From positions 82,404 through 146,403 of the forward strand of contig CALCZR010000060.1 of assembly GCA_937903325.1 (NCBI GenBank): a stretch of DNA of 64,000 nucleotides, written 5' to 3'. Every line of letters starts with the position of its first letter. Positions within the stretch are counted from its first letter, which is position 1. The position numbers and the translations under genes are program-made. This DNA is from an uncultured Candidatus Saccharibacteria bacterium (lineage in GTDB: Bacteria; Patescibacteriota; Saccharimonadia; Saccharimonadales; AWTP1-31). Below are positions 1 through 59,222 of this stretch, piece after piece. A model generated the notes under the pieces. That model made no database searches. It worked only from the letters and a program-made list of their open reading frames with translations, and had not been told where the DNA came from.

Positions 1-1549
1 CACTCGTAAAATTGCAAGGCTTGGTAGTAAGTGCCTTATCTTCACCGTAAACCGTGTTGTCTAGAGTTTCTACATACGCGCGGTAATGGTACGTTGTGTT
101 ACACGTCAAGCCAGAGATATCCGCTCGATATTCTTCATCTTGGTACAACGGTGCGTATCTGTAGATCCCGCTGGGCGACGAGTCTTTGATAGCCAGTAGC
201 GATCCATCTGGCAGTGCCACCGTATCCTCAACATCTACCCCGATGTCCGATACCCATATACCTTGGGACAGCACCGTCCTGGCAGTTCCTAGCCACAAAT
301 TATCGTTGCTGTCGATCACAAACGAACCCCTCGCTGTGACATAGCCGGTGTCTAGGAAAGTCTCAGCTCCATCAGGCGCAATTTTTTTTACTTTTGCTTG
401 GAGGAAATACTTCACATAAATTGACTGATCGGCACCGATAGCAACACTTGTAGCATCGTCATACACATCACCAAAATGCAGAGGGAGCTCATCAATAACG
501 GCTCCTACCGGGCTATATCGTACGAGCTTGTCATGGAATACCACTAGCACATTGCCGTCAGCCTCTACCGCTATATCTTGGGCGGCCGACTCAACCGATA
601 CGCCACTAACTGACCAGTCGAGTGGCGACGAGCCATCTGTGTTAGAACGCGTAATCTTACCGGAGCTTAGACTATAGAGATGCCCAGAACCATCAGTAGC
701 CAGCTGAGTATATACTTCAGTGCAGTCAATCGGACTATCCTCGGGAGGGCCGCAGCCCCAGTGACTGTTATAGGTATAGTCTGGATTGAGCTTGACCACC
801 CTTGAGTAGCCAGCTGCCACGTAGATGTATCCGCTATTGTCTCGAGCGAGTGCAACAGGATCGAGGGCGCCATATCCATCTAACATTGTGCCAATCTTTT
901 GACCAAATACATACTTCGGTATAATGCCGGCTTGCTTTGTACTGCCATAGCCAGTAGTAGTGCCGTACTCAAAGCCTCGCTCAGTAATGTAGTCGATATT
1001 AGGTGTCCAACCACTCGTAATTTCACCACGTAGTTCAGATGTTTGCTGTGATGTGGCAACATTTGTTCGTGTCTCAACAGAGACCGGGGTAAAAGCATAG
1101 GTCTGCCGTAATTGCAGTACAACTGCCGTCACGAGTAACGTGAGTAGTATCGTTGTATAACCCGACCACAGCAGTACTCTCTTCTTGTAATAAAGTGCCT
1201 TGGGGACAAAAACGGCTTTGGCATGGTGAAGTAACCCATAACGAACATTGGGATCTTCCAACGCAAGCGGTTTTCTGTGTCTTTTGTAGTCAAGCTGATA
1301 ATAGATAGTCAGCACAACTAACAGTACTAGACCCGCGCAACCTATTACAGAAAATATGACAGGATAATCTGGCCTATTACCTGTAAAGAGGACTCTCCAG
1401 GCGTTTCGACTAAGTGAGCTAGTGGGCTTTAGCAACAATGTCACCAAGATCATTAATAGCAAAGACCCAGCTATGATCATAAAATTTTTGCTATGACCGG
1501 TTTTACGGCTGTAAAATCTCGTCCTACTGTTTTTCTTTATCCTACGCAT
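1..1549 (-). CDS. Giant membrane-anchored surface protein, N-terminal ~516 aa only (gene continues past the left window edge); paralog of the 1700-aa protein at 10652..15754
   Basis: Hand translation of the minus strand from ATG 1549..1547 gives MRRIKKNSRTRFYSRKTGHSKNFMIIAGSLLLMILV...TIYYQLDYKRHRKPLA. At the window edge it gives DISGLTCNTTYHYRAYVETLDNTVYGEDKALTTKPCNFTS. Both stretches are colinear with the N-terminal third of 10652..15754. The intervening part of the frame (about 121..1260) was not translated codon by codon. It is absent from the ORF track because no stop codon lies inside the window. Confidence 0.8.
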   Translation of the reverse strand, partial: MRRIKKNSRTRFYSRKTGHSKNFMIIAGSLLLMILVTLLLKPTSSLSRNAWRVLFTGNRPDYPVIFSVIGCAGLVLLVVLTIYYQLDYKRHRKPLALEDPNVRYGLLHHAKAVFVPKALYYKKRVLLWSGYTTILLTLLVTAVVLQLRQTYAFTPVSVETRTNVATSQQTSELRGEITSGWTPNIDYITERGFEYGTTTGYGSTKQAGIIPKYVFGQKIGTMLDGYGALDPVALARDNSGYIYVAAGYSRVVKLNPDYTYNSHWGCGPPEDSPIDCTEVYTQLATDGSGHLYSLSSGKITRSNTDGSSPLDWSVSGVSVESAAQDIAVEADGNVLVVFHDKLVRYSPVGAVIDELPLHFGDVYDDATSVAIGADQSIYVKYFLQAKVKKIAPDGAETFLDTGYVTARGSFVIDSNDNLWLGTARTVLSQGIWVSDIGVDVEDTVALPDGSLLAIKDSSPSGIYRYAPLYQDEEYRADISGLTCNTTYHYRAYVETLDNTVYGEDKALTTKPCNFTS

Positions 1550-4737: not shown

Positions 4738-4752
4738 TATACTAAACCCACT

Positions 4753-4962: not shown

Positions 4963-5180
4963 TAGCTATCAGGGAAAACGTCTGAGGCTTTCACGCCCAG
5001 AGCAGCAATAATCTCATACAGCGTTTCAACAGATGCGATAGCAGCACCTTGCTCAAGTGTGGCGTAATAGTTTGCGGTCACTCCTACAACTTCAGCGACC
5101 TCACGCTGCGTGAGCCGCTTGGCTTTACGAGCTTTACGCAGGTTTGATCCGATAGTTTTCTTGAGTTTACGTTCGTTCAT
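4959..5180 (-). CDS. XRE-family helix-turn-helix transcriptional regulator
   Basis: The HTH signature is ..LTQREVAEVVGVTANYYATLEQG.. It is a paralog of 26107..26328. Confidence 0.8.
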   Translation of the reverse strand: MNERKLKKTIGSNLRKARKAKRLTQREVAEVVGVTANYYATLEQGAAIASVETLYEIIAALGVKASDVFPDSY

Positions 5181-5191
5181 GGGTCTTTATG

Positions 5192-5485
5192 CTAGCGCAG
5201 AACCTTGAGTTCGCTACGCTTGGAATATCGCTTCAAATCTTTGAGGAGCATAGAAAACAGGTTGGTATTTTCGTATTCTTCTTTTTCTTGTTGACTGGCA
5301 AACTGAAGGTTCAGGACAAAACGAGTTTGTACTCCAACATTCGGGTGCACACCTCCAAGGGCATAGCCTTTGTGTTCGAATTCGCTTAGGCGGTTCATAG
5401 CCATAAGTGTTCTGTAAGTTTTGCGCACTCGCCAGCGTTTTGGCGTGGCAGCAATGTATATGTACGTTTTCCCAGTACTCTCCAT
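5192..5485 (-). CDS. Hypothetical 97-aa protein (possibly a remnant; starts ..TGKTY.. like the tail of a P-loop)
   Basis: This is an ORF only. It sits between TyrRS and the XRE gene on the same strand, and no recognisable family motif was seen. Confidence 0.35.
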   Translation of the reverse strand: MESTGKTYIYIAATPKRWRVRKTYRTLMAMNRLSEFEHKGYALGGVHPNVGVQTRFVLNLQFASQQEKEEYENTNLFSMLLKDLKRYSKRSELKVLR

Positions 5486-7930: not shown

Positions 7931-10627
7931 ATGCAGCAGTTATTGGATACACTCATCAATGGCCCCGCTCGCTACACCCAAGAACACCACTTGAGTCCGG
8001 CACTAACTCTAGTGGTCATAATTGTTGCCTTGTTAGCAGAGTTTGTAGGCTTCTATGCTATCTGCTTGGCAATAGTTAGATTCGTCCAGAGTATCCCGAC
8101 AATGCTTGGATATCTGCTTCGGAAGTGTGGTGTAGGCGGCAAAGAATCACCCAAAGTCTTCCTAGAGCTTACGTTTCCAGCGCAAACCGGAAAATCTGCG
8201 CCAGCAACCGAACAGTTACACACCTTACTCCGCAACCAGACGGCCAGTCGGAGCTTTTGGCAACGTTTAGCTGCACCCAAAACGACACGCTCCATGGAGA
8301 TTGTCTCTACAAGGCGTGCTGGCATCCGCTATGTCATGGCTGTACCTGCTCGAGAAGTTGAGTATATACAGAACAGCCTCCGGTCTTACCAGCCTGGCCT
8401 CAAGATTCGGGTAATAGAAGAATATCTTGGTGCAATACATGAGATATCTGCCGGAGTCGCGGAACTCAACTTAGCAGGTGATTTTGTACTCCCGCTGCAA
8501 GATCAGAAAGCTCTGAAAGACCACGACCCGATTGGCTACCTCACCGGTCAAATGACCAAGCTTGATCCTAAAGAATTAGTGGCTTTTCAGGTTGTGGTAA
8601 GCCCAGTACTTAACACTACTCACAGACGATCGTTGCGACATATTCAGTCTATGCGGGGGCGCATAAAGATGAGCAAAACGTTGTCTAACAAGTTAGTCGT
8701 CCAACGTACGCCTGTTGCCAGAATCTTGTGGCTACTCTGGTATCCGCCACTATGGTTTTTGGGAGCAATGGGTAAGATCCTAGCATTTATGGTTAGCGTA
8801 GTTACTAGCATGTTTTCTAGAGATCATGCGCTTCCCGACATGCTCATGGGCGGAAGCGACAAGAAGCGAGCAAACGACCCGTACGAGACGGAGCTAGGTA
8901 AAAACATAAAAGCCAAGCTCGACCAGCAATTATTTGAAGTCTCTCTACGCGTATTGGTGGCGTCGCCAGATAACAAACGCATTGTGCAACGCTTGAATGG
9001 TTTAGTGGACACCTTTGAGCCGTATGCCACGAGTAGTCAAGGAATTCGTGCCTATCGAAGCCTTCGCTTGCTATTCATTAAAACAGACAACAACCTATCT
9101 CGTTTTATAAGCCGTAACCTAACGCCTCATGTAGTAAGCCAACAGGTTATCTTATCTAATTCCGAACTAGCCAGCTTATACCATTTTCCTAACCCTGATT
9201 CAGTACGCACCGAAAATATAGTGCAGTCACTTAGTAAAACACTACCCGCTACCGTTGCCCTCAAAGGAGATACCCAGCTTGATGTAGTTTTAGGCGTCAA
9301 CAAACATCAGGGTAGTAGCACACCTATTGGCTTAACGGCCGATGAGCGAGAACGACACATCTATATAGTTGGCGGTACTGGCAATGGTAAAACAACCATG
9401 CTGGAGTACGGCATCGTGCAAGATATCTGTGCCGGTAAGGGTGTAGCCATTATTGATCCGCACGGTGATTCTTGCAAGAAACTCCTTGGCTATATTCCTA
9501 AAGAACGTATCAAAGACGTTATTTACCTGAACCCTAGTGACTTGGATTATCCTATTGGACTGAATCTACTGGAACTACCAAAAGGTTTGTCTGGTAGTGA
9601 GCTGGCGCATGCCAAGGATATGGTGACTGAGGCAGTTATTTCAGTACTACAAAAGATATTCGACAGTGGCAGCGAAGCTAATGCCTACCGCATTGAACGA
9701 GTGCTACGCAATGCTGTACACACCGCTTTTACCGTACCTGACGCTACACTCTTTACAGTTCTAAGACTCCTGACCGACACAACCTACCGAAACAAAGTAT
9801 CCAACAAACTGGAAGATGCTAGTCTCAAACGCTTCTGGAAAGAAGAAATGGGCAAAGCTGGTGATATGCAACGGGTTAAGATTAGTGGTGGCCCGATTGC
9901 TCGAATAGAGCGCTTTGAACGATCTGAGTCTGCCAAGCGCATGCTCGGCCAGGCTACTTCAACTATTGATTTTGACGACATCCTTGCTACTAGTAAAATC
10001 CTTATCTGCAATTTCAGCAAAGGACGACTCGGAGAAAGCACTTCCACACTCTTTGGTACAACTGTCCTGGCTAAGTTACAGCTCGCTGCTTGGCGACGAG
10101 ATGAAATAGCCAGTAAAGACCGTGTACCGTTTTATGTATATGTCGATGAATTTCAGAACTTTGCCAGCGAGTCGTTTTTAAGTCTGTTCTCGGAGGCTAG
10201 GAAATACAAGCTATTCTTAACCATGGCTCAACAATCCGTTTCACAGCTGCAAGCTAAAACCATGGTCAACACCATACTCGATAACGTTGGTACGGTTATT
10301 GGCTTTAGATCTAAAAGCCCTGATACCGAGAAGCTACTACTTCACCAGTTCAGCCCGTACATCGAGCCAGGGGAAATCATGAACCTACCAACCTACAACT
10401 TTTACATAAAGGTCGCCGCACTAGAATCGCACGAACCAATGTCGGGCGAGACACTACTGATTGAGGGTGAAGGCAGCGACAGGACGGCAGATAAAGTCAA
10501 AGCCAACTCACGGAAACAATATGCCAAAGAATATGTTGAGACAAAGCTAGAAAAGAAGCCTGAACCTGCAAAAAACTCTGTTACCGAGAAAGCTGCAGAC
10601 AGTTCACTGGCATCAATTGAAGCTTGA
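7931..10627 (+). CDS. Type IV secretion coupling protein (VirD4/TraG/TraD-like ATPase), full length
   Basis: There are N-terminal TM segments. Walker A is GGTGNGKTT and Walker B is FYVYVDEFQNF. The C-terminal ~135 aa are paralogous to the stub at 32647..33053. Confidence 0.85.
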   Translation: MQQLLDTLINGPARYTQEHHLSPALTLVVIIVALLAEFVGFYAICLAIVRFVQSIPTMLGYLLRKCGVGGKESPKVFLELTFPAQTGKSAPATEQLHTLLRNQTASRSFWQRLAAPKTTRSMEIVSTRRAGIRYVMAVPAREVEYIQNSLRSYQPGLKIRVIEEYLGAIHEISAGVAELNLAGDFVLPLQDQKALKDHDPIGYLTGQMTKLDPKELVAFQVVVSPVLNTTHRRSLRHIQSMRGRIKMSKTLSNKLVVQRTPVARILWLLWYPPLWFLGAMGKILAFMVSVVTSMFSRDHALPDMLMGGSDKKRANDPYETELGKNIKAKLDQQLFEVSLRVLVASPDNKRIVQRLNGLVDTFEPYATSSQGIRAYRSLRLLFIKTDNNLSRFISRNLTPHVVSQQVILSNSELASLYHFPNPDSVRTENIVQSLSKTLPATVALKGDTQLDVVLGVNKHQGSSTPIGLTADERERHIYIVGGTGNGKTTMLEYGIVQDICAGKGVAIIDPHGDSCKKLLGYIPKERIKDVIYLNPSDLDYPIGLNLLELPKGLSGSELAHAKDMVTEAVISVLQKIFDSGSEANAYRIERVLRNAVHTAFTVPDATLFTVLRLLTDTTYRNKVSNKLEDASLKRFWKEEMGKAGDMQRVKISGGPIARIERFERSESAKRMLGQATSTIDFDDILATSKILICNFSKGRLGESTSTLFGTTVLAKLQLAAWRRDEIASKDRVPFYVYVDEFQNFASESFLSLFSEARKYKLFLTMAQQSVSQLQAKTMVNTILDNVGTVIGFRSKSPDTEKLLLHQFSPYIEPGEIMNLPTYNFYIKVAALESHEPMSGETLLIEGEGSDRTADKVKANSRKQYAKEYVETKLEKKPEPAKNSVTEKAADSSLASIEA

Positions 10628-10651
10628 ATAATAACGCAGACAACCATCTAT

Positions 10652-13600
10652 CTATGCCATTGGTTTGATAATATTGCTGTCTTGGCCCTGTACCTCACCC
10701 TTTACAACTGGAAGTGTGATGTCAATGGCCGTTCCGGACTTCTGCGTGCTTGTAACCTTTATGCTACCTCCACTTTGCTCAACGATTGCTTTGCTGACGA
10801 ATAGACTGAGGCCAAGCCCCTCGTGATCAAAGGTCGTAACATCCGTACCTCGTTGGAGCGGTTCAAATAATGTTTTTTGCGCCTCAGGGGTCAGACCAGG
10901 TCCGTTATCAGCCACTCGAATTCCTACCTTACCTCCAACCGTTCGTATAAGCACCGTTACGGCACTGTTGGCTGGGCTGTATTCCACTGCGTTGCCGACT
11001 ACTGCACTCAGAATGTAATCAAGCTGCTCGGATCGGAGCGGCACCAAGAGACCGTCCGTCACCGTAGTCTTTACGGTGGTGCTCTTTGTCTGAGCTTGTT
11101 GCTGGATGGCTGGATCGATCGACTGCTTGTAGTACGCACCAACATCGACACTACCTACAGGCTCGAGCTGTGTTAGCCGTTCGTAGCTAGTAAGTTTAGT
11201 AGCTAGTTTCTGCAGCATACCGAGACCATTCATTAAGAGGTGAGCATCAGGCAACTTATCCATACCCTCAGTACCTTGCCTTAACTGACCAGCATGGTGC
11301 TCTAGCGTAGGAGCGACTGACTGCAGGAGTTCTTCTTTTTGGCGAACCAAACCACGTGTGTTCACCAGATCCTGATCAATGCCAGCGTGCAAGACTTTGG
11401 CTCGGCTGTGGTAGAAATAGAGCAACCAGATAAGTAATCCGCTAAACAACGTCAGAATTATGTTGTTAGTCAGCTGTGCTCCCCGTTTTTCGTAGGCCCC
11501 CGTCAGCAACAGGGAAAGGTCAACAGCCGCTATACCTAAACCAATGGCCAGCTGGCCAGCCCAGAGATTACGGGCCTTCGTCAGCAGTGCTTGGTCTGCC
11601 TTACTAAAGCTCGACTGCGCTGCTGGTGCCAGCGCGATCTGTACCGAACCCTCAAAGCCCTGGACTGAAAGTTTTAGGGCTGCAAGCTTCTGACCAAAAC
11701 TTGCCAGAAACGCACCATCCAAAGCATGCTTACTAGTCATGAGTTCGTGTGCTCCCTGCATGACGGCTAGTGGGGTATTGAGGTAGTGCGTAACGATCTC
11801 TAGGAACTGCTGGACAGTGGCAACCCTGCGTTTTGCCGCCACTAGTGCCAGGCGAACACCACGCACAAAGCGATATTCACGCCACGCCTGTGCCGCATAG
11901 GCTACAGCAAGGAGTAGGAGTAGCGACAAGAAGAATACAGAGAACAAGCGAGCTGAGCCTCGTCGGGTGTTTGCCGAAGCCGTCTTGCTTGGTAACTCGG
12001 TAATACCCCCAGCCTGTAGTTTCTGGATCGCTTGCGGCGAGAATGGATTCTCTTCTCCTATGATTGGCGGCGTGGTGGTGGTCGTTGGAGTGCTAGCTGG
12101 CTTCTTGGGCGGCTGAATAGGTGGAGTTGGTGGCTCAACCGGCGGCGTGGTGCCAGGGGTATAGTTGTAGGTCCACCGCGAAATGTTGTTAGTATCTACT
12201 GTCCAAAAATCCCCATCGGCTTGGAATACACTTTGGAAATCGATCTCGGGTCGTTCAACACTGCTCGTATCAACAACCAGTACTCTGTTGAGCGAACTGC
12301 CACTCACAAAATTTTGCGTTGCCGTACCAGTGATATCAACTTCGAAGACACCCTGGGCTGCAACTTCGTACTGACTGGTCGAACCGACACAAATAACAGT
12401 AGTATGTCCTGGATAGTGTCTGCCATAATAGGAGTCTTCGTAATCCTCACCATCCTGCATCATTGTGCGCGTATCAACACATTGATATGGGTCAGAAATT
12501 GATTGGAAGGTAAATCCAACTGGCAAGGTCATAATCAGATTAGTGTCTGAACTCCAAACACTTGGACCAAGGTTCGTAATTGCTATGCGGAATGTTGCTT
12601 GTTTGCCTTGTGTAATCGGAAGTTCGGTAAGTAGTCGCTGTGACACACTCAAGTCATACACAGGGCAGGCCGCAGTGGAAAACTGATGGTCAGCCCCCGT
12701 ACTATACCCCTCTCCGTTATATGCCCACGCCTGGTAATGAAATGTTTTACCACATTCAAGCCCCGTAAGATCCAGGCTAAACTGCTGCGCGTTATAAGGG
12801 CCTTGGTTTTGATTCACCGAGTAGCCGTAACTGGTGGTTTCCCCGTAATTAAAGCCAACTCCCGTAATATTGCCTTGGCCAGTGTTTGTTATTTCGCCAA
12901 ACAATTTTGCGCTGTTAGTTGTGACGTTACTCGATGACCCCGTCTCTACCGCGAGCTCTGTGGGCGGAGGGCAGCTCGCAGTGGTAAACGTTTTATCTTC
13001 ACCATAGGTACCGAAGTTATCATAGGGATTTTCGGTCAAGGGCGCATAATGTTGTCGAGCCAACGCCTGGTAATGGTAGGTTGTACCACAGGTAAGATTC
13101 TGAACTGTCATAGAGAAAGGCCCCGTATTGTGACTGAGGCTAAACTTTTGAATACGATTAAGAGTCGAGTCGGCCACATAAATATTGCCGTTTTTATCGG
13201 TAACCACATCACTAATCTGCCCAAATTGGCTAGGGCCACTCCCTGCAGATCCCCAGGTAGCACGATGGCCAGCTACCGTCCCATCATAGAGGCGCTGCAT
13301 CCGTTGGTTCGCAGCATCGCCGATGTAGAAGGCCTGGTCAGCCCCCGTGCTTAGTCCAGTAGCTTGCACAAACTGTCCGTTACCCGTACCGGCACTACCG
13401 AAGCTCGATTCAAAGGTGGATGCGTTAAACCTTTGAACTCTATTATTGCCGGAGTCCAAAATAGAAAGTGATTCCACCTCACCCGTAATCCCGGATGGGC
13501 AATTAAACTGGCCTTCACCTGTTCCTGCAGCACCAAAAGCACCCATATACTGTCGTTTTATGTAACTGGAATCCGAGGCGTGTACAGCAAAATAATTACC

Positions 13601-15754
13601 CATGCGTAAATAGCTCTGCACGCGATTATTACCGCAGTCAGCTATATAGGCCTGCTCATACGTTCCTTGTGAGGCAAAATGAATGGCTCTAATATTGTTA
13701 AACTGTTGTGGTTCGCTACCACTACCGCCCAACTTGCTCAAGTAGTTACCTTCTTGGTCAAACTGCTGGATATAGTCACTACTATCGGCCACAAATACAT
13801 TGTCGGACTTATCAACTCCAATGGCGCTAATGGCGTTAAATTGTCCGTTGCCAGATCCGCTACTACCCCAATTTAGGATAAAATCACCATCCGGACTGAA
13901 TTTCTGCACACGATTACCGCCCACGTCCGCCACGTAGATATCACCATTGGACGCCACTGCCATAGGCCCTGCTCCATCAAATTGTCCGTTGCCAGATCCG
14001 CTACTACCAAAGGTGTCTACATGCACAGGTACTTGGCTCAAACTGTTCGAGCTAACATGACTGCCGTAACTAGTATCAAGCCCGTATGCAAAATATGTTT
14101 GGCCAATTGCGCCGGCAATGTTTCCAGATACCGTTCCATTAAGCGTTGCACTGGTGTCGCCTACAGCAGTGGCGGACTGTGTAGACACCGTTTCGTTTAC
14201 GAAGTTACACGGCGCGGTAGTAAAGGACTTATCTTCGCCGTACACTCGTTCGTCCAGGCTATCAATATATGCACGGTAATGATAGGTTGTTGCACAGGCT
14301 AGGCCAGAAATTTCTCGCCGAAACTCGATGTCACGATACTGGGGAACGCTCAGTTGGACTCTGTCGTAATCGGAGCTAGTTGTCAGGATTGAACCATCGG
14401 GAAGAGCTAGCGTGTCCAGAACATGCGAATTACTATTGATCGTATTAGTCCCGTTAGAATCTGCCGTCCAGGCTATGGTGAGTCGATCTCCCAGAATAAA
14501 ATTATCCTGCTCATCAATGTCAAAAGCAGGACTACCTTGTGCAATTTGTATATCAATAAAGCTTTCTGTCCCGTTGGTGGCAATTTTCTTAATCAGCCGC
14601 TGGGCTTGATACTTAATGTAAATTGATTGATCCGAACCCACTGCGACGCTCTGTGCCTGATTGTACGGCGAAGGACTGTTGATGTAGGTAGACAGCTCAT
14701 CGAGCAGTGACCCTGTCGGACCGTATCGGACTAGCTTATCTTGGAATAACACCAGTACATTGCCGGTATTCTCAACTGCAATGTCAGTCGCAGTACCGCC
14801 ACCCAGAGACCAGTCTAGAAGTTGCGTACCGTCAGTATTCACTCGGGTAATTTTGTTGTTACTAATCAGGTAAATATGTCCATTGGTATCTGCCACCATC
14901 CGGCCAAAATTATCCAAACATTCCCCTTCTTCGAGGTATATACAGTTCCACTGACTATTAAGGGTGTAGTCTGGGTTAAACTTAATAACCGTCGATTTGC
15001 CTCCACTCTGGTTATTCACATAGACATAGCCAGCACTGTCGCGAGCAAAAGTCTTTGGATAGAAGAATTGAGCACCTGAATCTTGCTGTGATATAGCGTA
15101 ACCTGTTACATAAGGAGGAAGAACTCCTGCAGGTATGGTTTCGCCATAACTGGTAGTAGTGCCGTATTGGAAGCCTCTATTGATTATGTAGTCAAGATTT
15201 GGGGTCATACCATTGGTTACTTCACCCCGTAGCTCAGTAGTCTGTTGGGTGGTTTTGGCATTGGTTAATGTCCTTGCCACCGCCGGTCCGCCAGGATTAG
15301 CAAACGTTCGGCTAAGCTGTACGCAAACTGCGGCTGCAAGCAGAATAAGTAACACCGAGGTATACGTCGACCGGAACAGAATTACTTTTTTCTTGTATAG
15401 AACCCTCGGGATAAACACCGTCTTGGCGTGGTGGAGTAAGCCATACCTAACACCTGGATCTTCCAAGGCAAGTGGTTTCTTGTGTCGCCGGTAATCAAGC
15501 TGATAGTAGACCGTCAGTACAAACAGTAGTAGGAGGCCCACAAAACCCAATGCCGTAAGCACTGCCAGGTAATCGAGCCTATTATTGGTAGATAGTAATC
15601 TCCAGGTAATCCGACTAATAGAGGGGCTGAACTGCAATAGTAATGATACACCGATCATCGCGAGCAAAGACGCAGCCATAATTATAAAATTCGTGTTGCG
15701 TTCTATTCGCCGGCTATAAAACCTTGTCTCGGTGTTTGACTTTTTTCTACGCAT
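10652..15754 (-). CDS. Giant (1700 aa) membrane protein: ~1250-aa extracytoplasmic region with NHL-type beta-propeller repeats and Ig/FN3-like and DUF11-like modules, Pro-rich linker, TM segments, C-terminal histidine-kinase core
   Basis: Features along the protein, N- to C-terminus:
- N-terminal TM helices
- recurring ..C.TTYHY(R/Q)A.. module ends
- NHL-like ..GNNRVQ(K/S/R)F.. repeats with GSGNGQF
- a PPVEPPTPPIQPPKKP linker
- an H-box-like THYLNTPL
- an HATPase_c region (DNGPGLTPE...GLGLSL). Confidence 0.8.
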   Translation of the reverse strand: MRRKKSNTETRFYSRRIERNTNFIIMAASLLAMIGVSLLLQFSPSISRITWRLLSTNNRLDYLAVLTALGFVGLLLLFVLTVYYQLDYRRHKKPLALEDPGVRYGLLHHAKTVFIPRVLYKKKVILFRSTYTSVLLILLAAAVCVQLSRTFANPGGPAVARTLTNAKTTQQTTELRGEVTNGMTPNLDYIINRGFQYGTTTSYGETIPAGVLPPYVTGYAISQQDSGAQFFYPKTFARDSAGYVYVNNQSGGKSTVIKFNPDYTLNSQWNCIYLEEGECLDNFGRMVADTNGHIYLISNNKITRVNTDGTQLLDWSLGGGTATDIAVENTGNVLVLFQDKLVRYGPTGSLLDELSTYINSPSPYNQAQSVAVGSDQSIYIKYQAQRLIKKIATNGTESFIDIQIAQGSPAFDIDEQDNFILGDRLTIAWTADSNGTNTINSNSHVLDTLALPDGSILTTSSDYDRVQLSVPQYRDIEFRREISGLACATTYHYRAYIDSLDERVYGEDKSFTTAPCNFVNETVSTQSATAVGDTSATLNGTVSGNIAGAIGQTYFAYGLDTSYGSHVSSNSLSQVPVHVDTFGSSGSGNGQFDGAGPMAVASNGDIYVADVGGNRVQKFSPDGDFILNWGSSGSGNGQFNAISAIGVDKSDNVFVADSSDYIQQFDQEGNYLSKLGGSGSEPQQFNNIRAIHFASQGTYEQAYIADCGNNRVQSYLRMGNYFAVHASDSSYIKRQYMGAFGAAGTGEGQFNCPSGITGEVESLSILDSGNNRVQRFNASTFESSFGSAGTGNGQFVQATGLSTGADQAFYIGDAANQRMQRLYDGTVAGHRATWGSAGSGPSQFGQISDVVTDKNGNIYVADSTLNRIQKFSLSHNTGPFSMTVQNLTCGTTYHYQALARQHYAPLTENPYDNFGTYGEDKTFTTASCPPPTELAVETGSSSNVTTNSAKLFGEITNTGQGNITGVGFNYGETTSYGYSVNQNQGPYNAQQFSLDLTGLECGKTFHYQAWAYNGEGYSTGADHQFSTAACPVYDLSVSQRLLTELPITQGKQATFRIAITNLGPSVWSSDTNLIMTLPVGFTFQSISDPYQCVDTRTMMQDGEDYEDSYYGRHYPGHTTVICVGSTSQYEVAAQGVFEVDITGTATQNFVSGSSLNRVLVVDTSSVERPEIDFQSVFQADGDFWTVDTNNISRWTYNYTPGTTPPVEPPTPPIQPPKKPASTPTTTTTPPIIGEENPFSPQAIQKLQAGGITELPSKTASANTRRGSARLFSVFFLSLLLLLAVAYAAQAWREYRFVRGVRLALVAAKRRVATVQQFLEIVTHYLNTPLAVMQGAHELMTSKHALDGAFLASFGQKLAALKLSVQGFEGSVQIALAPAAQSSFSKADQALLTKARNLWAGQLAIGLGIAAVDLSLLLTGAYEKRGAQLTNNIILTLFSGLLIWLLYFYHSRAKVLHAGIDQDLVNTRGLVRQKEELLQSVAPTLEHHAGQLRQGTEGMDKLPDAHLLMNGLGMLQKLATKLTSYERLTQLEPVGSVDVGAYYKQSIDPAIQQQAQTKSTTVKTTVTDGLLVPLRSEQLDYILSAVVGNAVEYSPANSAVTVLIRTVGGKVGIRVADNGPGLTPEAQKTLFEPLQRGTDVTTFDHEGLGLSLFVSKAIVEQSGGSIKVTSTQKSGTAIDITLPVVKGEVQGQDSNIIKPMA

Positions 15755-15776
15755 TGCTCTCTGGTCTATCTACTAT

Positions 15777-15796
15777 AAGTATAACCGTCTTGACCC
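15777..15796 (-). promoter_or_regulatory. Conserved upstream block of the giant-protein genes (copy 2)
   Basis: The 20-mer is identical to 1647..1666. The minus-strand TATACT at 15783..15778 lies ~24 nt upstream of the ATG at 15754. Confidence 0.35.
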
Positions 15797-15869
15797 TTGT
15801 AGACCAGCTACATCTGATTCTTGATCGTCAAACAGACCACCAGTAACGCGTCCCACTTGTCTATTATGG

Positions 15870-16487
15870 TTACAGAAGGGTCTGGAATTTTTGGTACATG
15901 GCTTTGTCGAGCGGCTTACTACTTCCAAGGGATAACGTTACGTTATGCAACTTATCGCCTTTAAGCTCAACTAGCTGATTGGCAGTAGGGCTATAAAAAG
16001 CATCCGATCCAAGCTGTATTCGGTTTTTGTCGGGTAACTTAGTAAGTACATCATACGCTTTTTTGGCGGCTTGGGTATCTTTGAATATTCTTGTAGAAAT
16101 AATGACTGAGCGAATTTCTTGGGCCTGATCGCCATTAACAATATATGCGCAGCCAGACACTGAACCCTCTGTGTTTTTCGTATTAGGGATACTGACTCGA
16201 GCTCCGTTAGTCTTCTGACCCAGGATACTCTCGAGTTTAGATAGGGACACCGTGTCACAGACGGCACTTTTAGCGTTCTTTGGAATAGTCACCAGTTGGT
16301 CTTCGACCGACTGGTTCTCTTCGCCGTCATATATGACATTCCTGGTCGGCTCCATGCGATCGTTACGGCCACGGACAACAAGAACTCCGGTTGTCACCCC
16401 AAGTACGAGCACCGCCACCAAACCCATTATGAGGCGTTTATTGAGGCGACTGCCGTGGCTATGGGTGTATTTCTTTAGGTTAGTCAA
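15870..16487 (-). CDS. Membrane-anchored hypothetical protein (205 aa)
   Basis: It has a single N-terminal TM helix (LIMGLVAVLVLGVTTGVLVV) and no recognisable motif. It is present only in element E1. Confidence 0.45.
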   Translation of the reverse strand: MTNLKKYTHSHGSRLNKRLIMGLVAVLVLGVTTGVLVVRGRNDRMEPTRNVIYDGEENQSVEDQLVTIPKNAKSAVCDTVSLSKLESILGQKTNGARVSIPNTKNTEGSVSGCAYIVNGDQAQEIRSVIISTRIFKDTQAAKKAYDVLTKLPDKNRIQLGSDAFYSPTANQLVELKGDKLHNVTLSLGSSKPLDKAMYQKFQTLL

Positions 16488-16492
16488 AGATA

Positions 16493-19400
16493 TTACCTTC
16501 TATTACTTTTTCGTTTGTGCAGCACAAGCAGCCCTGTTGATGTCAGTAGCAGCACCAGTGGGACGGTGACCATAATCTGCTGCCCGGTCTGACCCAACCC
16601 ACCATCCGATTGGGAATCACCTCCACTATTTGACCCATCACCATTATTGCTACCATTATCTGTCGGAGGATCAACACCTGGTGCAGTATAGGTGGCAAGA
16701 GCTAGCCCATTGTCATTATTGGACTGTAATGTGTCGATCATATCGTTGTTATAGCTATTGAATATGCGGTATAGGTTGGCATTGGTCGGATCGGCTGGCA
16801 CACCAAAGGTAAAGAAAGCACTTGTGAAGCTATCGGGCGCAGTTGCCGTAGTAACGTTAATGTCGACTGTTATGCTCTCGCCACTCGGCAAGCTCGACAT
16901 CGAACCAACATACGTACACAGGAGCATACTGTATCCTGGGTGATCCTCTAGCAAAGGCCCCATAAGTGCAGCGGAGTTAGGCCCACCCCACTGGCAATTC
17001 ACATCGGAATTTACACTGCCCACTAACGTTAAGTTGGGCGCTAGAATACCCACGAACAGAGCATTGGAAAGCGGGTTGAAAACAGCTTGTCCGTCGAGGT
17101 AGCGGGGGTCCATTGGGAAGGGACCATTATTAATAAATTCCACTCGATACGTTAGATTGGCGCCAGGCGCCACATCTTCGGGATTTACGAGTACAGCCTC
17201 TAGACTAGCGTCCGCCGGCTGGCTGTAGGCACGAGTGTAGTTATTGACCCCTTGCGATAGGAGAACATCGAAAAGGTCATTACCCGACCCTGCAGCTTCG
17301 CCAACTGCAGGTCCATCTGGATCGTTTACATCGGTATTAGCAAACTGCGCCAGTACATGAACAAAGAATTCTGGCTGCGAAGCATCAGTGACTTCGGCCG
17401 ATACTGTATAGGAGATGCTTTGTCCGCTCGCGAATATTGTACTGCCTCCGGTATGTGCACAAACTACTATGGAGTGGTCAGGATGGTTGGGGAGCACTCC
17501 ATCGGCGAGCGCCCCATACGCAGAACACGCCACATTACTACCAGCGACACCCGTATAGGTGAGTGATGGTGGCAGGAAGGCCATAAATAAGTCGGTACCC
17601 GCAAAGGGTAAAGGATCGTTTAACATGTTTAGGTCGAAGTCGTCTGGGCCATTATTGGTAAGTGTAATCTGGTAATTTAGTACCCCACCAACCTCAAAAT
17701 CTTCTGGATTCAGCAGCACTGCACTAGATGAAAAGTCCGATACCTCTTCGTAAGTGTATTTCGTTTCGTCGAAGTTATTGAATGAATTAGTCAACATCTC
17801 GGCGATGATATCGTTACCGCTCGTGATCGCGTCTTGGTACAGGTTCCGGTTCGGATCAAAAGTTGGAGTATTTGCGATGGTGTAGACGAGTAGATCCTGT
17901 TTACCTTCTTGGACCTCCGCCGAGATGGTATATGTCCGAGACTGGCCAGAATTGAGCATGCTAGTACCACTCGTATGGGCGCATACTACAATGCTATAAT
18001 CCGCGTGATCGGCAAACAAACCACCTTGTGAGCCCGCCGAACCAGGCCCACCATCAACACAACTCAGTCCAGAACCGCTCGCTTGACTAAACACCAGGTC
18101 ACTCGGCAAGATTAGGGCGAACAAGTAGTCTGAACTAAAGTTGGACTGGTCGAGCTCATCTAAGTTAAGATTGTCTGGTCCGTTATTCTTTAGCGTGACT
18201 TCGTAATTAAGGATATTCCCGGCAGCCACGTCCTCAGGATTTTGTAATGCAGTAGTAGCCTCTAGGTCAATGTCCCTTATGAGTAGAGAACCCTCCGTAC
18301 CAAATTCACTGGTCGCACCAAAGCCACTAGGCGAAGCAACGTTCTCTTCTGTGGCAGTCAGCGATAGGTTATCGTGCCCCACTCCAGGAATAAGGAAATC
18401 GAATTCCTCCAGCCCTATCCCGCTCGAAGTAACACTAATACTATCGATATAAGTCTGCCCCTCTCCGGGATAGTCAGGGTCGGCAGTGTCGTTACTAAAG
18501 AACTCGATCCGGTAATCACCGGCAGGTACATCCATAGTAAATTTACCCTCTGTATTGCCGCCATCCTCGATAATTTCAGTGTAACCAGGGGCATTCAGGC
18601 CACCGTTCGGTCCCGTATCATTATCCCCGCCATCACCAGTGTTCGTGCCAGATAGTAAAATACCTTTACCATTATTATCATCAATACTATTACCTAGGAT
18701 TGATATGCGCTGCGCGTTATCCCTTAAATCTATTCCCGGTCCGTTCGTAGTGTGTACGATAGTATTTTCTAAAATCAACACATCCTCGGTGTTTTCGGCG
18801 ATTATGATTCCCCAGTAGTTGGGGAACGCCGTGGTGCCATTGCCCATAACGCCAATTTTATTGCCTTCGATAACAATGTTATCTGACGCCGCAGCGGTTA
18901 GGGCCGAGTCACGGATATCTATAGCCTCCCGCTGACTGCCGGAAATTATATTGGCAGCCGCGCCAGCACCACCAATTGTAGAGTTAGTGACCCCTTGGAA
19001 TGAAATACCGGTTTTCTGAGGTCCGTTGTTTGCGAGGTTATAGAGTATTCGGTTTCCAAGAATTGATATGTTACTGGAGTCTTGCCCAAAAATAGCTCCT
19101 TCGGCGTTATGCTCAAACGAGTTACCTGCCCCACTTGCGCTACCGCCAATGGTTACGTCCGAAGCATCGCCAAGAATGACCACGGCCGCCTGACGGTTAG
19201 CTCCATAACTAGAGAAATAGGTTGTATCCAAACTAGTTACCCCGTCGGAAGCAAGCCCAACATAATTACCCAAAATTTCAGTTCCGGTATTAGCGCTGCC
19301 TCGTACCTCAATACAGTTGAGCGCACAGAAGCCAAATATGTTTCGGGCCGAACCTGTCGTGCCCCCAACTACGGCGTTACTCGTATCGTCCAAGATGAGC

Positions 19401-19981
19401 GACCGGGTAGGCACAATATCATCCCTGCCACGTTCCATGCCGTTCGGCGTAGTGCCAGTGTAATTACCGTAAAAGTGGAAATTGGCGGCTCCAGTAACTG
19501 TCACATCCGCATCGGTTGAGTTGGCAAAGTTAATACCCTGTATAGTAACGTTATTACCGGTCACCTCCATGGATCCCGCTGTTGAACCATCAATAGTAAC
19601 CCGGAGCAGTCCATTGAACGGATTAGGCCAAACTGCCGTGTTAGCCTGAGCATCGCCCTGGCTATAGCCATTAATAAGCACACGCTGCGTAACGGTCAGT
19701 GGCGTTAGTGGCTCAATAACTACATCTCCGGGGGCGTCGGCATTGATGTCGAAGGTAATAGTGTCGGTATCGGCAGGGTTACCATTACCATTTGCCGTGG
19801 CAAGTGCCGCTCGCAGCGATCCAGCACCCGAATCGTTAGTGTTGGTTACTATAATGTTTACGGGCGCCGCGTTAACTATAGGCACACCATTTGGAGCCAA
19901 TTGACTATACGCCGCTACCGCTAAGGTTGCCACAAACGATACGGCTAGAAGTCGTGAAGTTTTAATACGCATAGTTATCAA
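16493..19981 (-). CDS. Wall-anchored surface protein: signal peptide, right-handed parallel beta-helix region, three DUF11-like repeats, LGQTG sorting signal
   Basis: An N-terminal signal peptide is present. Many short G/N/I-rich beta-helix turns follow (..NIISGS.., ..ILGN..). There are three repeats: LNYEVTLKNNGPD, LNYQITLTNNGPD and LTYRVEFINNGP. The C-terminus is LGQTG plus a hydrophobic stretch plus KRKSNRR. Confidence 0.75.
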   Translation of the reverse strand: MITMRIKTSRLLAVSFVATLAVAAYSQLAPNGVPIVNAAPVNIIVTNTNDSGAGSLRAALATANGNGNPADTDTITFDINADAPGDVVIEPLTPLTVTQRVLINGYSQGDAQANTAVWPNPFNGLLRVTIDGSTAGSMEVTGNNVTIQGINFANSTDADVTVTGAANFHFYGNYTGTTPNGMERGRDDIVPTRSLILDDTSNAVVGGTTGSARNIFGFCALNCIEVRGSANTGTEILGNYVGLASDGVTSLDTTYFSSYGANRQAAVVILGDASDVTIGGSASGAGNSFEHNAEGAIFGQDSSNISILGNRILYNLANNGPQKTGISFQGVTNSTIGGAGAAANIISGSQREAIDIRDSALTAAASDNIVIEGNKIGVMGNGTTAFPNYWGIIIAENTEDVLILENTIVHTTNGPGIDLRDNAQRISILGNSIDDNNGKGILLSGTNTGDGGDNDTGPNGGLNAPGYTEIIEDGGNTEGKFTMDVPAGDYRIEFFSNDTADPDYPGEGQTYIDSISVTSSGIGLEEFDFLIPGVGHDNLSLTATEENVASPSGFGATSEFGTEGSLLIRDIDLEATTALQNPEDVAAGNILNYEVTLKNNGPDNLNLDELDQSNFSSDYLFALILPSDLVFSQASGSGLSCVDGGPGSAGSQGGLFADHADYSIVVCAHTSGTSMLNSGQSRTYTISAEVQEGKQDLLVYTIANTPTFDPNRNLYQDAITSGNDIIAEMLTNSFNNFDETKYTYEEVSDFSSSAVLLNPEDFEVGGVLNYQITLTNNGPDDFDLNMLNDPLPFAGTDLFMAFLPPSLTYTGVAGSNVACSAYGALADGVLPNHPDHSIVVCAHTGGSTIFASGQSISYTVSAEVTDASQPEFFVHVLAQFANTDVNDPDGPAVGEAAGSGNDLFDVLLSQGVNNYTRAYSQPADASLEAVLVNPEDVAPGANLTYRVEFINNGPFPMDPRYLDGQAVFNPLSNALFVGILAPNLTLVGSVNSDVNCQWGGPNSAALMGPLLEDHPGYSMLLCTYVGSMSSLPSGESITVDINVTTATAPDSFTSAFFTFGVPADPTNANLYRIFNSYNNDMIDTLQSNNDNGLALATYTAPGVDPPTDNGSNNGDGSNSGGDSQSDGGLGQTGQQIMVTVPLVLLLTSTGLLVLHKRKSNRR

Positions 19982-22298
19982 TCGTTACATTAGCATCAGT
20001 CTTAAGGATTAGATTTCCGGATGACCCCAAGTCGGTACCATACTGTCCAGCCACCAATACAGCAGCGTGGCTAGCTCGATAGCCCTTGTCGTCACGCAAC
20101 AGATATATGGAACCATTGGCAGGAATGACCGAACCGGCGGGGATTGTGTAATTGATACCTTCGACGACCCAATCAGAAATATCAACAGGCGTATTGGCGC
20201 CGTTAGTGAGCTTAATGTACTCGTCACTGTTGGTACCGCTAGCCACCACCTCGTCAATACTAACCGATTGCTTCTGGCCAAGGGTTTGCGAACTTGGTAT
20301 AGCCCAAGAATCACGGTAGTAAGCGCCGTACAACAACTTGAGCTCTGCAAGTACGGCCAGGTCTTTCTCTTTTGTTTCTCGCACATAGCCTACCCACTTC
20401 GCTTGGTCGGCGGCATTCAGATCTGCATAATCGTCTGCGAATTCTTCGTACTTATTAAGAAGTCCGTCATTGGTGTAGAATCTGTCGACAAGCGTACTTA
20501 AGCGCCGGTAGTACGCTGCACGCAGGTCGGGCTCATCGTAGATAGCCTGTAAGAAGAATCGGGAATTGGTAGGCAGTACACCCGTATTGTCATAGACGTT
20601 AATGTTAGTTTTAGGCTTAATGGAGATCAGGTCGCCATCATGGTCCCACGGCAAAGCCTCCCAGCGATCTGTAGTATTTGAGCGATAATAGAAGATATTC
20701 TGAGTTCGAGTGAAGTCATAGTGTTGGGTTATGGCCGCCATAGCCATGTAGTTAATAAGTGCCGGGATATTATTTTCGTCTAATACATAGTCACGCTTGG
20801 CGGCATCTTTGCGGTCCACTGTCATGTGGTCTTTCCAAGTCTCAAGATCATTGATGTTAGCCGCACCATTTTCGATGGTGAAGTAATCTTCGAATAGCTG
20901 CCCGCCGTTAAAGCCGTTGGCTTGCCGCCACTGCGACTGGTACTTATCGACCATAATGTATGCGCCTTCAAACTGTCCATTACGCCGGAGCTCAGTTATC
21001 TGGTTGTTCGTAGTTGTTAGTCCACCCTGCTCCATAGCCCAATAGACCGTAGGTAACTTGCCTGCTTCGTTGGCTTTGTAGTTGGCGTTTAAATGAAACT
21101 CTTTAATGTTTGGCGTCATACCTGGATAGGTCAGTGTGTGTCCAGCAGGCAGATCAACCTTCAGGCTCTTCTTTGGGAATCCCAGCGTATTACTGCCCTT
21201 GGCTCGTACGCTTGCGTTATCATACACCTCGTTACCATACACTATAACTGCCGGGTACTGATTTACTATCTGCAGGTCAGCCTGGGCGTACATGTCGTCA
21301 TAGTCGGCATCGGTAATAAACCATTGTAAAAGGGGAGCCTCATTATACGTGGCGCTCGGATCTTTGACGTAATAACCGTTATACGTCATCGAGTCATCTA
21401 CACTTGGTGAGCTCTGAGTACCGCTGCTGTTGGTTGCTTCAATCCTAAACCTCACCAGCGTATTAACAGATTGTGCGGGAATAGCATTAGCACCATACAC
21501 GTTATCTCCCGCTCCACCATCGTTATGAGCCCCATCATCAAACATAGTAACGGTTGCGTCGCTCGTAAAACCGATCTTATATTTTAATATGACACTCGTA
21601 ATGCCAGTTCCGGTAATAGTGGCTGTTATATTAACTGCTTGACCAGCGGTAATATTGTTAGGATCAGTCACGTTTGTAATGCTTGGCAGGCTCAGCCCGA
21701 ATACACTATTCTGCGCCAAAGGCGTACCGCCATTACTAACACTGCCCGCCCAGCTTGCTGCCAAAGAGTTATCGAGGTTTGGCGCTTTGAGCTCCAGCGA
21801 CTTACCTGTCCCTGCCGGCGTTAATGGCCATGGAGTATTTCGGGAATACGTAACAGTGTCCATAATGGCTGAGGTATTATCTACTAAAGTGACGGTTTCG
21901 CCACTATTACTAAGGTTGCCAGTATACGTCCCACTTGTTGTCTTGCCATAAGTATTCATCGTATTGGTAGCGTTGGGCGAAATAAGAAGATACCCACCAG
22001 CGGTAATGGTTGTGCCAGGGGTGAACGTCAGGGTTATTCCTTGATTAAAACTCCAGCCAGTCAAATCAATGCTTGAGCCGGTGGTATTGTACAGTTCCAG
22101 AAATTCATCATCCTGAGTACCAGTGTTTGGGTTATACATCATCTCATTGATGACCACATCCCCGGGCACAGCGGCACTTACTAGAGCGGGCTTACCAACC
22201 AGACACGCCCCAACTGATAGCATTACGGCTAGAACCAAAAGCAATGCTCCGGAATCCAAAGTCAAAAATCTGTGCATGATTGTTTTGGGCACCCTCAT
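19962..22298 (-). CDS. CotH-family (atypical kinase-like) protein flanked by lamin-tail (LTD) domains
   Basis: The N-terminal LTD signature is VVINEMMYNP...DEFLELYNTTGSSIDLTGWSF. The C-terminal LTD signature is DEYIKLTNGANTPVDISDW. The central region is of CotH type. It overlaps the downstream adhesin gene by 20 nt. Confidence 0.7.
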   Translation of the reverse strand: MRVPKTIMHRFLTLDSGALLLVLAVMLSVGACLVGKPALVSAAVPGDVVINEMMYNPNTGTQDDEFLELYNTTGSSIDLTGWSFNQGITLTFTPGTTITAGGYLLISPNATNTMNTYGKTTSGTYTGNLSNSGETVTLVDNTSAIMDTVTYSRNTPWPLTPAGTGKSLELKAPNLDNSLAASWAGSVSNGGTPLAQNSVFGLSLPSITNVTDPNNITAGQAVNITATITGTGITSVILKYKIGFTSDATVTMFDDGAHNDGGAGDNVYGANAIPAQSVNTLVRFRIEATNSSGTQSSPSVDDSMTYNGYYVKDPSATYNEAPLLQWFITDADYDDMYAQADLQIVNQYPAVIVYGNEVYDNASVRAKGSNTLGFPKKSLKVDLPAGHTLTYPGMTPNIKEFHLNANYKANEAGKLPTVYWAMEQGGLTTTNNQITELRRNGQFEGAYIMVDKYQSQWRQANGFNGGQLFEDYFTIENGAANINDLETWKDHMTVDRKDAAKRDYVLDENNIPALINYMAMAAITQHYDFTRTQNIFYYRSNTTDRWEALPWDHDGDLISIKPKTNINVYDNTGVLPTNSRFFLQAIYDEPDLRAAYYRRLSTLVDRFYTNDGLLNKYEEFADDYADLNAADQAKWVGYVRETKEKDLAVLAELKLLYGAYYRDSWAIPSSQTLGQKQSVSIDEVVASGTNSDEYIKLTNGANTPVDISDWVVEGINYTIPAGSVIPANGSIYLLRDDKGYRASHAAVLVAGQYGTDLGSSGNLILKTDANVTIDNYAY

Positions 22299-22391
22299 AG
22301 ATTACCTACATTTTACCATAAGTGTCTTATTAATTGTTGGTTGTAGGCTTACTAGCATATAACCTTATCTTGCAAAGCCTTAGGACAACAA

Positions 22392-32533: not shown

Positions 32534-32646
32534 GTCAAACAGTCCTTTCTAGAGCACAGCGGGCTACCGCCCGCAGTGCTCCTAATTTAACAGATTAAGC
32601 CGATTCTAGAATAGACTGAGTGTTGATTATATGTGGAGGGTGACAA

Positions 32647-58847: not shown

Positions 58848-59222
58848 ATGGCCGCAGTCAAAGTCGCTATCGTCGAAGATGACCAAGCAATCAGCCAAAT
58901 GTACCGTATCAAGTTTCAGTCCGAAGGATTTGACGTAGATACGGCAGAAAATGGCAAGCTAGGCCTTGAGCTGTGCGAAAAAATGCACCCCGACATTATC
59001 CTCCTCGACCTTATGATGCCCGAGATGACCGGCGACCAAATGCTTACTGAACTGCGTAAAACTACTTGGGGCAAAGACGTTAAAGTCGTTATCCTCACCA
59101 ACATGGGCGAACAAGAAATCCCTGAATCCGTTAAGAAACAAGGCGTCAGTGCCGTTATCCTTAAAGCGGACATGACTCCACGACAAGTCGCTGAACTCGT
59201 TAAGAAAACCATAGACACCTAG
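58848..59222 (+). CDS. Single-domain response regulator (CheY-like receiver)
   Basis: It has the DD acidic pocket, the phospho-acceptor D in ILLDLMMPEMTG, and ..VVILTN...K. Confidence 0.85.
   Translation: MAAVKVAIVEDDQAISQMYRIKFQSEGFDVDTAENGKLGLELCEKMHPDIILLDLMMPEMTGDQMLTELRKTTWGKDVKVVILTNMGEQEIPESVKKQGVSAVILKADMTPRQVAELVKKTIDT

Follow-up and report, generated by a model that had tools for sequence, protein, structure and literature searches.

The gene at 10652..15754, on the minus strand of the 64,000-nucleotide stretch analyzed here (the window; contig CALCZR010000060.1 of an uncultured Candidatus Saccharibacteria bacterium), encodes a 1700-amino acid (aa) protein that is probably an active, orphan, polytopic sensor histidine kinase from a chromosomal family in which the surface-binding ectodomain can be swapped. 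As judged from sequence, we put the probability of this reading at about 0.62. The family is large and unnamed, and its kinase core is unusual in being duplicated. The initial annotation of the window had described the protein as an NHL-propeller surface protein fused to a histidine-kinase core and carried by mobile elements. A second phosphotransfer hairpin without the acceptor histidine and membership in a large protein family are points that go beyond it, and the family-wide tandem core with swappable giant ectodomains is a more interesting finding than the mobile-element link.

The open reading frame (ORF) starts with ATG and its span includes the stop codon. The product is identical to the called protein P0001, present on 4 public contigs, the longest of which has 283 kb (ENA ERZ650265 NODE_7). 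The same architecture recurs on these 4 contigs and across more than 140 clusters, which rules out misassembly or a gene-fusion artefact. A second copy had been proposed to begin at 1549 and to leave the window; translation of the minus strand bore this out and identified it as P0002, which is 51% identical to P0001 across the 516 aa inside the window and 57% across full-length P0002.

Hydropathy analysis revealed six transmembrane (TM) helices in the 1700-aa kinase (residues 22-40, 64-82, ~124-150, 1270-1288, 1402-1420, and ~1428-1450). As TM4-6 lie between residues 151-1267 and the cytoplasmic ATP-binding domain, this long region is placed outside the cell; by the same logic, the two TM helices between the segment 1289-1401 and the ATP-binding domain place that segment inside. 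The Lys/Arg-rich N-terminal tail and TM2-TM3 loop fit a cytoplasmic location, as judged by flanking charges. The order of parts read initially (TM helices, an outer region of NHL, FN3, and DUF11 modules, a stalk, further TM helices, and a complete kinase core) agreed with the Pfam, motif, and hydropathy results, and with three TM helices between it and the ATP-binding domain the repeat region does not fall in the cytoplasm. The extracytoplasmic region is large and lies outside, as had been claimed, but its size is ~1117 residues (151-1267) and not ~1250.

The kinase module has the order TM4-DHp1-TM5-TM6-DHp2-CA, where DHp denotes the helical hairpin that normally bears the phosphorylated histidine and CA the ATP-binding catalytic domain. 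Pfam HATPase_c covers residues 1576-1683 (E 3.7e-21), and a motif scan located the CA boxes at N1588, D1616-x-G-x-G1620 (G1), F1630..P1632 (F), and G1646-x-G1648 (G2). The H-box THYLNTPL is on DHp1 helix 1, with the His1323 codon at 11786-11788. A profile was built from an alignment of the C-terminal modules in the five closest relatives and searched against PDB sequences. The H-box region of HK853 and SrrB (FIANISHELRTPL) paired with FLEIVTHYLNTPL, which assigns His1323 to the acceptor position, and the complete DHp+CA of HK853 paired with DHp2+CA, with HK853 His260 opposite Pro1482 in SVAPTLEHH. The H, N, G1, and G2 residues, on which the assignment as a kinase core depended, and the F box were all found on the profile alignment. 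Because the HK853 H-box aligns to DHp1 while the HK853 DHp+CA aligns to DHp2+CA, the module contains two DHp-homologous hairpins, the second of which lacks the acceptor His.

A comparison of TM4+DHp1 with TM6+DHp2 by hhalign, made with 144 family sequences, gave a probability of 90% (E 1.5e-6) over 48 columns in register, and the His1323 column stood opposite Pro1482, a variable column in the family. In an AlphaFold2 (AF2) model of residues 1266-1700 (24-sequence alignment; pLDDT 76), TM4 ran without a break into helix 1 of DHp1, as did TM6 into helix 1 of DHp2, module helices 3-77 and 82-113 corresponded to DHp1, and CA had an alpha/beta fold. Foldseek matched the last ~220-245 residues to the DHp+CA of HK853, CpxA, ZraS, KinB, WalK, and DivL, with TM-scores of 0.6-0.74. 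Of the two HisKA-like helices named initially, the one with TLEHHAGQL does lie within a DHp-homologous helix; its role as a second phospho-acceptor was ruled out, as the residue aligned to the His is Pro1482 and the adjoining HH is not conserved.

Class I HisKA kinases (Thermotoga HK853, E. coli CpxA/EnvZ, WalK) share with the family the GHKL-fold CA with its N, G1, F, and G2 boxes, the DHp fold, the H-box SH(E/Y)L(R/N)TPL on DHp helix 1, a TM helix running into the His-bearing helix, and an extracytoplasmic sensor between two TM helices. In contrast to them, the Saccharibacteria family has tandem DHp hairpins with a TM hairpin between; the acceptor His belongs to the distal one, and ~160 residues (two TM helices and DHp2) intervene between the His-bearing DHp and CA; in the hairpin next to CA, Pro/Glu/Ala stand where the His would be; HAMP and PAS domains and an adjacent response regulator are absent; the ectodomain reaches ~3900 aa; and many giants carry an extra 3-TM N-terminal module. 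In the class II kinase CheA, the phosphorylatable His is likewise apart from a His-less dimerization bundle (P3) that bears the CA domain (P4), and CheA P4 also matched our CA profile in the PDB sequence search. Here, however, the His is carried by a hairpin of the DHp type that has a class I H-box, and not by an HPt; both elements are membrane-tethered, and there is no CheW or receptor coupling; the Pfam scan gave no Hpt, H-kinase_dim, or CheW matches, and the likeness is one of logic, not of membership. In its second half, from TM5 through a short loop and TM6 to DHp and CA, the module is laid out as in the intramembrane-sensing kinases of the BceS/LiaS type, and BceS 8g3a matched the module model over 331 columns in Foldseek. 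Those kinases keep the His in their DHp and need a partner transporter or accessory protein, whereas DHp2 of the family is His-less and is preceded by a His-bearing unit.

The family was revealed solely by an exhaustive profile search over 1.84 billion representatives, which returned 953 matches at the cut-off of E <= 1e-30; the best of these, together with the seed proteins, made up the 153 sequences examined. A word-index homolog search with the full protein gave only about five true relatives, suggesting a rare protein; with the C-terminal module alignment it was swamped by generic kinases, and with the CA-less alignment it returned one protein. The full TM-DHp1-TM-TM-DHp2-CA module occurred in one stretch in 144 of the 153 sequences, that is, in at least 144 cluster representatives of 419-4413 aa. 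The H-box His is kept in 141 of these 144, and the Y, L, T, and P of the H-box in 128, 124, 135, and 137, so that HYLNTP is strongly conserved. The counts for the CA boxes were as follows: N-box Asn 143/144, F-box Pro 142/144, the three positions of G1 D-x-G-x-G 138, 144, and 139, and the two of G2 G-x-G 139 and 144. The His-equivalent column of DHp2 holds E, Q, S, K, or A, with no conserved His across the 144 representatives. This pattern argues for catalytically active kinases with the acceptor His on the distal hairpin.

Cluster look-ups yielded few member names; those obtained are all Candidatus Saccharibacteria/Saccharimonadales, and two relatives in GTDB genomes belong to metagenome-assembled genomes of Candidatus Saccharimonadota. 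Since the scan of GTDB genome contigs, which recovered these two true members, used a narrow peptide pattern, the taxonomic breadth is under-sampled. No description of this family or of tandem-DHp kinases was found in the literature searched, a limited library from which the result counts as absence of evidence only; histidine kinases go unmentioned in a transposon-sequencing paper on Southlakia.

The degree of conservation also bears on another explanation, namely that the protein is a giant adhesin or wall-anchored surface protein whose kinase-like module serves as a membrane anchor or as a pseudokinase without phosphotransfer. The ectodomain modules are indeed of the adhesin type, databases label members as '6-bladed beta-propeller' or 'repeat protein', and no partner regulator is near. 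Several observations weigh against an active sensor kinase, and some of them suit the adhesin explanation. P0005 (L008 441-5228) keeps two NHL propeller blocks and the whole TM/DHp/CA layout, but its H-box His is gone and its G1/G2 boxes are degenerate; it is likely a pseudokinase derivative, and by these losses some family members would be pseudokinases. The Pfam HisKA match at 1315-1341 is weak (18.9 bits vs. a cut-off of 26.9), the AF2 model of the module is only moderately confident (pTM 0.64), K and R in the short TM5-TM6 loop are in mild conflict with the positive-inside rule, and no partner regulator was identified within the 64 kb of genome covered. Yet the catalytic motifs and the H-box His are kept in ~98% of 144 divergent representatives, which is hard to explain without catalytic selection, and the small members join an ectodomain of ~170 aa to a full kinase module, so that the conserved part is the kinase and not the adhesin. 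We consider it unlikely that the protein is an adhesin with an inert kinase-like module.

To look for receivers we used a small hidden Markov model, which included CheY and Spo0F sequences, in a six-frame scan; as a positive control, it detected the receivers at an unrelated locus for a hybrid kinase. In the 64-kb window the scan found no receiver except that at 58848..59222 (+), a stand-alone 124-aa protein (Response_reg E 1.8e-21) 43 kb from the giant kinase, in line with what had been stated before. At nine family loci no receiver gene was found within 8-10 kb, and precomputed Pfam annotations agree; the orphan status is for this reason a family trait. The receiver at 58848 was considered as a dedicated partner and is unsupported in this role, a canonical soluble histidine kinase at 49761-51272 (-; HisKA E 3.6e-16 plus HATPase_c, no TM helices) being closer to it. 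The soluble kinase and the receiver (58848-59222) are 7.5 kb apart and in separate operons; two-component genes seem to be generally unlinked in this genome.

The chain of the kinase module consists of an inward TM helix with a hairpin, an outward TM helix, and a second inward TM helix with a hairpin and CA. This topology reproduces both subunits of a canonical dimer, which suggests a single-chain pseudo-dimer. The tandem TM-DHp units would pack as a mimic of the homodimeric four-helix bundle within one chain, unit 1 retaining the His and unit 2 the CA, with TM5 merely returning the chain across the membrane. A ligand outside would displace TM4-DHp1 relative to TM6-DHp2-CA, this displacement would gate the phosphorylation of His1323 by the CA domain, and the phosphoryl group would then go to an unlinked response regulator. 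We offer it as a tentative and rather doubtful proposal that this tandem duplication of TM helix and DHp hairpin is a natural single-chain pseudo-dimeric kinase and the main host-surface sensing chassis of Saccharibacteria. Alternatively, the protein could be an ordinary homodimeric class I kinase, with DHp1 as the sole working DHp, the DHp2 region as a linker or signaling helix, and no pseudo-dimer. Histidine kinases are mostly homodimers, and DHp1 has both hairpin helices and a canonical H-box. Against this, DHp2+CA aligns at full length to HK853 DHp+CA by sequence profile, its fold matches many solved kinase cores, and DHp2 is homologous to DHp1 in register; retention of the DHp fold across 144 representatives would be surprising for a mere linker. 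Because of these profile, fold, and in-register matches, we take DHp2 to be a true DHp in the CA-docking position, and an ordinary dimer with a linker in place of DHp2 appears quite improbable.

Within the outer region, Pfam detected NHL repeats (E 1.4e-16), a DUF5128 six-bladed propeller (E 1.5e-9), a borderline Mala_s_1-like match at threshold (254-337), and a weak DUF11 match (1034-1087, E 0.0045). The motifs quoted initially and the Pro-rich stalk were located by motif and composition scans, with GSGNGQF at 586 and 633, GTG(E/N)GQF at 744 and 789, NNRVQ at 709 and 770, and C.TTYHY(R/Q)A at 487 and 889. Two composite units, A (155-530) and B (520-930), were homologous by an iterated profile search (E 2.9e-85), each having an FN3-like start (…GFxYGxTTSYG), a ~300-aa propeller, and an FN3-like end (…CxTTYHY(R/Q)A…YGEDKxFTT). 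The AF2 model of residues 520-930, built with 16 homologous units aligned, was all-beta (pLDDT 89.2, pTM 0.84). Foldseek matched the center of unit B to the NHL domains of Thin, TRIM71, and TRIM2 (TM-score 0.88-0.91, root-mean-square deviation 1.7-2.9 A), and the unit B model also to the PknD ectodomain 1rwl of M. tuberculosis. According to the model, six NHL blades of unit B close into a propeller; the placement of the split FN3 halves around it is predicted from motifs. A DUF11-like module stands at the equivalent position in P0003, P0008, and P0054. Present twice in P0001, the composite propeller-in-FN3 unit of ~380-410 aa recurs at least twice in other family members, with three copies in P0256 and two in P0108, for instance. 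A further protein, P0004 (1670 aa), has a signal peptide and otherwise consists almost wholly of ~16 tandem FN3-like modules (GFNYGTTTSYG…CxTxYHYRAY…TFTT), with no kinase and no Pfam match; the same type of FN3-like module therefore also builds kinase-less surface proteins.

The ectodomains of 24 giant members are mosaics, among which we counted NHL in 13, fn3 in 12, GLUG in 6, DUF285 and Peptidase_M26_N in 4 each, and DUF11 and PKD in 2 each. Small members (~620 aa) join the same kinase module to a ~170-aa Ig-like ectodomain, which follows a signal peptide or TM helix, and ectodomain length ranges from ~170 to ~3900 aa within the family. Even orthologs at the same locus differ, with ~170 aa in P0198 vs. 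~1100 aa in P0003. Its modules make binding of a surface or polymer ligand the most likely role of the ectodomain, and this ligand could be on the host bacterium or on the cell's own envelope; the Pro/Thr stalk probably spans the cell wall. Given adhesin-like, mosaic ectodomains that are exchanged among orthologous loci, sensing of a host surface by contact is plausible.

Other kinases with propeller ectodomains are known. In PknD of M. tuberculosis a six-bladed NHL propeller is likewise joined through the membrane to a cytoplasmic kinase; PknD, however, is a Ser/Thr kinase of the Hanks type with one TM helix and one propeller, whereas the 1700-aa protein has a His kinase core, six TM helices, and propellers that sit inside FN3-like domains. 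The hybrid two-component sensors of Bacteroides (Reg_prop / Y_Y_Y) carry large propeller and Ig-like outer domains, thought to bind polymers, on a histidine kinase. They have their own receiver with AraC output and a single canonical DHp, as opposed to the tandem DHp, NHL blades, and missing receiver of the Saccharibacteria family; propeller-type hybrid sensors (P0044 and P0048) gave weak matches in the homolog search.

The N-terminal module (residues 1-150) had no Pfam match. Its cytoplasmic loop 83-123 has the conserved motif DY..HKKPL..ED..V.Y.L.HH.K, and the module is kept in P0003 and P0008 and in at least 25 of the 90 family members of >=1000 aa, as compared to none of the 54 small members. 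It might aid the insertion of giant ectodomains or contact the kinase module.

The kinase gene is flanked on one side by the gene for a VirD4-like coupling ATPase (7931-10627) and on the opposite side by genes for a 205-aa protein, a beta-helix/DUF11 surface protein, a protein with lamin-tail domains (LTD) and CotH, and Replic_Relax; beyond Replic_Relax, and divergently oriented, lie genes for a serine recombinase, a PLD nuclease, and a type IV secretion system (T4SS; pilin/VirB6-like, PrgI, VirB4). Self-comparison of the window revealed three related cassettes, at 3120-4737, 7931-25894, and 32631-40946. The first is decayed to a truncated recombinase (3120-4265) and PLD (4219-4737) and adjoins the paralog, the second is the full version beside the kinase, and the third has a VirD4 C-terminal fragment (32631-33053) followed by a beta-helix homolog, CotH, Replic_Relax, and recombinase, with no kinase. 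Such a neighborhood, with a coupling-protein gene on one side, element and T4SS genes on the other, a threefold recurrence of the cassette, and a decayed recombinase+PLD pair next to the paralog, favors the view of the initial annotation that the kinase is cargo of conjugative or integrative elements, sensing contact with a host or recipient to control transfer or T4SS activity.

The positions of the relatives speak against this view. The paralog site has the gene order kinase-pyk-pgk-tpi-x-uvrD-NUDIX-G5, which P0002 has in common with P0202, and P0186 is near pyk/tpi, both of these being in other Saccharimonadales genomes that have no element at the site. Two other housekeeping loci, uvrC-M24 peptidase-holin-secG-SBP_bac_5-…-FAD oxidase-kinase and priA-def-fmt-…-infB-S1-ROK-x-kinase, hold P0003 (1682 aa) with P0198 (617 aa), and P0008 with P0054, respectively. 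For the seven relatives in the three loci, no T4SS or recombinase gene was found among the called genes within 8-10 kb. Moreover, in the third cassette the VirD4 fragment directly precedes the beta-helix gene with no kinase between, and the pattern of element cargo, which travels with the element and is missing from the empty site, was not observed. As the relatives occupy conserved housekeeping loci without T4SS or recombinase genes, the kinase family is chromosomal and not mobile-element cargo, and the conserved context gives no support to a link with element or T4SS activity. The copy at 10652..15754 is best seen as a lineage-specific duplicate within a region rich in T4SS/recombinase cassettes, and the mobile-element association applies only to this copy. 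The T4SS of Patescibacteria is reported to be a widespread, mostly relaxase-less chromosomal system (PMC12102498), which further weakens the framing as a conjugative element; in one Saccharibacterium the T4SS is essential for epibiotic growth, according to the summary of PMC10633639 given in PMC12857230. We consider it very unlikely that the kinase is element cargo that controls transfer or T4SS activity. The features of the kinase gene and its paralog are listed in Table 1.

Table 1. Parts of the kinase gene and position of its paralog in the 64-kb window
Feature	Position	Strand	Basis
Whole gene, membrane sensor histidine kinase, 1700 aa (probable)	10652..15754	-	ORF list; identity to P0001
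N-terminal module, residues 1-150: basic cytoplasmic tail, TM1 22-40, TM2 64-82, loop 83-123, TM3 ~124-150	15305..15754	-	Hydropathy, charges
Composite unit A, residues ~165-515: FN3-like domain (GFQYGTTTSYG ... CATTYHYRA) split by propeller-like insert ~215-480	14210..15262	-	Motifs, Mala_s_1-like match
Composite unit B, residues ~525-925: FN3-like domain with six-bladed NHL beta-propeller (~575-870) between strands (predicted)	12980..14182	-	Pfam, AF2, Foldseek
FN3-like module C, residues ~935-1025, no insert (GFNYGETTSYG ... CGKTFHYQAWA)	12680..12952	-	Motif positions
DUF11-like (CLIPPER / TIGR01451-type) module, residues ~1034-1190	12185..12655	-	Weak Pfam DUF11
Pro/Thr-rich stalk, residues ~1195-1232	12059..12172	-	Composition scan
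TM-DHp unit 1, residues 1268-1378: TM4 1268-1288 runs into DHp1 helix 1; helix 2 1347-1378	11621..11953	-	HisKA, profile, AF2
TM hairpin: TM5 1402-1420, short outside loop, TM6 ~1428-1450	11405..11551	-	Hydropathy; hydrophobic in all aligned homologs; AF2 helical
DHp2, residues 1451-1527: degenerate hairpin continuous with TM6; Pro1482 codon 11309-11311	11174..11404	-	HK853 alignment, hhalign, Foldseek
CA (HATPase_c) domain, residues 1538-1683	10706..11143	-	Pfam, motifs, family conservation
Paralog P0002, N-terminal 516 codons; remainder beyond window	2..1549	-	Translation; 51% identity to P0001

Some further observations were made on the cassettes and the flanks of the paralog. The serine recombinases of 601, 570, and (truncated) 381 aa are 41-60% identical, and between pairs of cassettes the two copies of the PLD-like nuclease are 64%, those of Replic_Relax 60%, and those of LTD+CotH 37-38% identical. 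The beta-helix surface proteins (1162 and 665 aa) are 33% identical, and the VirD4 fragment 32631-33053 has 58% identity to 7931-10627. By these comparisons one type of element seems to have been inserted or duplicated successively, giving three cassettes that differ in decay. The genes at 19962-22298 (-) and 35044-37860 (-) each encode two lamin-tail domains and a CotH kinase domain and each adjoin a Replic_Relax gene within a cassette, the lamin-tail + CotH proteins being an unusual cargo. A DDE transposase (rve) of the insertion sequence type, at 31380-32408 (-), directly follows the VirB4-like gene and a 137-aa ORF and precedes the VirD4 fragment, and may mark a rearrangement junction. Both flanks of the paralog (L007 6274-7196 and 15015-15981) carry an HTH_3 regulator of 73-74 aa, a convergent ORF of 68-69 aa, and a nuclease of the PLD-like or Mrr_cat type, which together might form a restriction-related or toxin/antitoxin-like module; the triplet at L007 6274-7196 maps near window 4219-5200.

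Members of the family carry the labels 'ATP-binding protein [Candidatus Saccharimonadales]', '6-bladed beta-propeller [Candidatus Saccharibacteria]', 'uncharacterized repeat protein', and 'signal transduction histidine kinase' (JGI). Because annotation pipelines call them ATP-binding, 6-bladed beta-propeller, or repeat proteins, genome surveys of two-component systems overlook the family. With the acceptor His and CA on separate TM-anchored hairpins, its core would offer a natural separation of functions that are intertwined in symmetric dimers, and could clarify cis vs. trans phosphorylation and asymmetric signaling. Saccharibacteria are obligate epibionts of other bacteria with tiny genomes. 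Orphan kinases with swappable giant ectodomains, predicted to bind surfaces and encoded at defined chromosomal loci, are concrete candidates for host sensing in these epibionts, for one species of which a genetic system is available, as indicated in PMC10633639.

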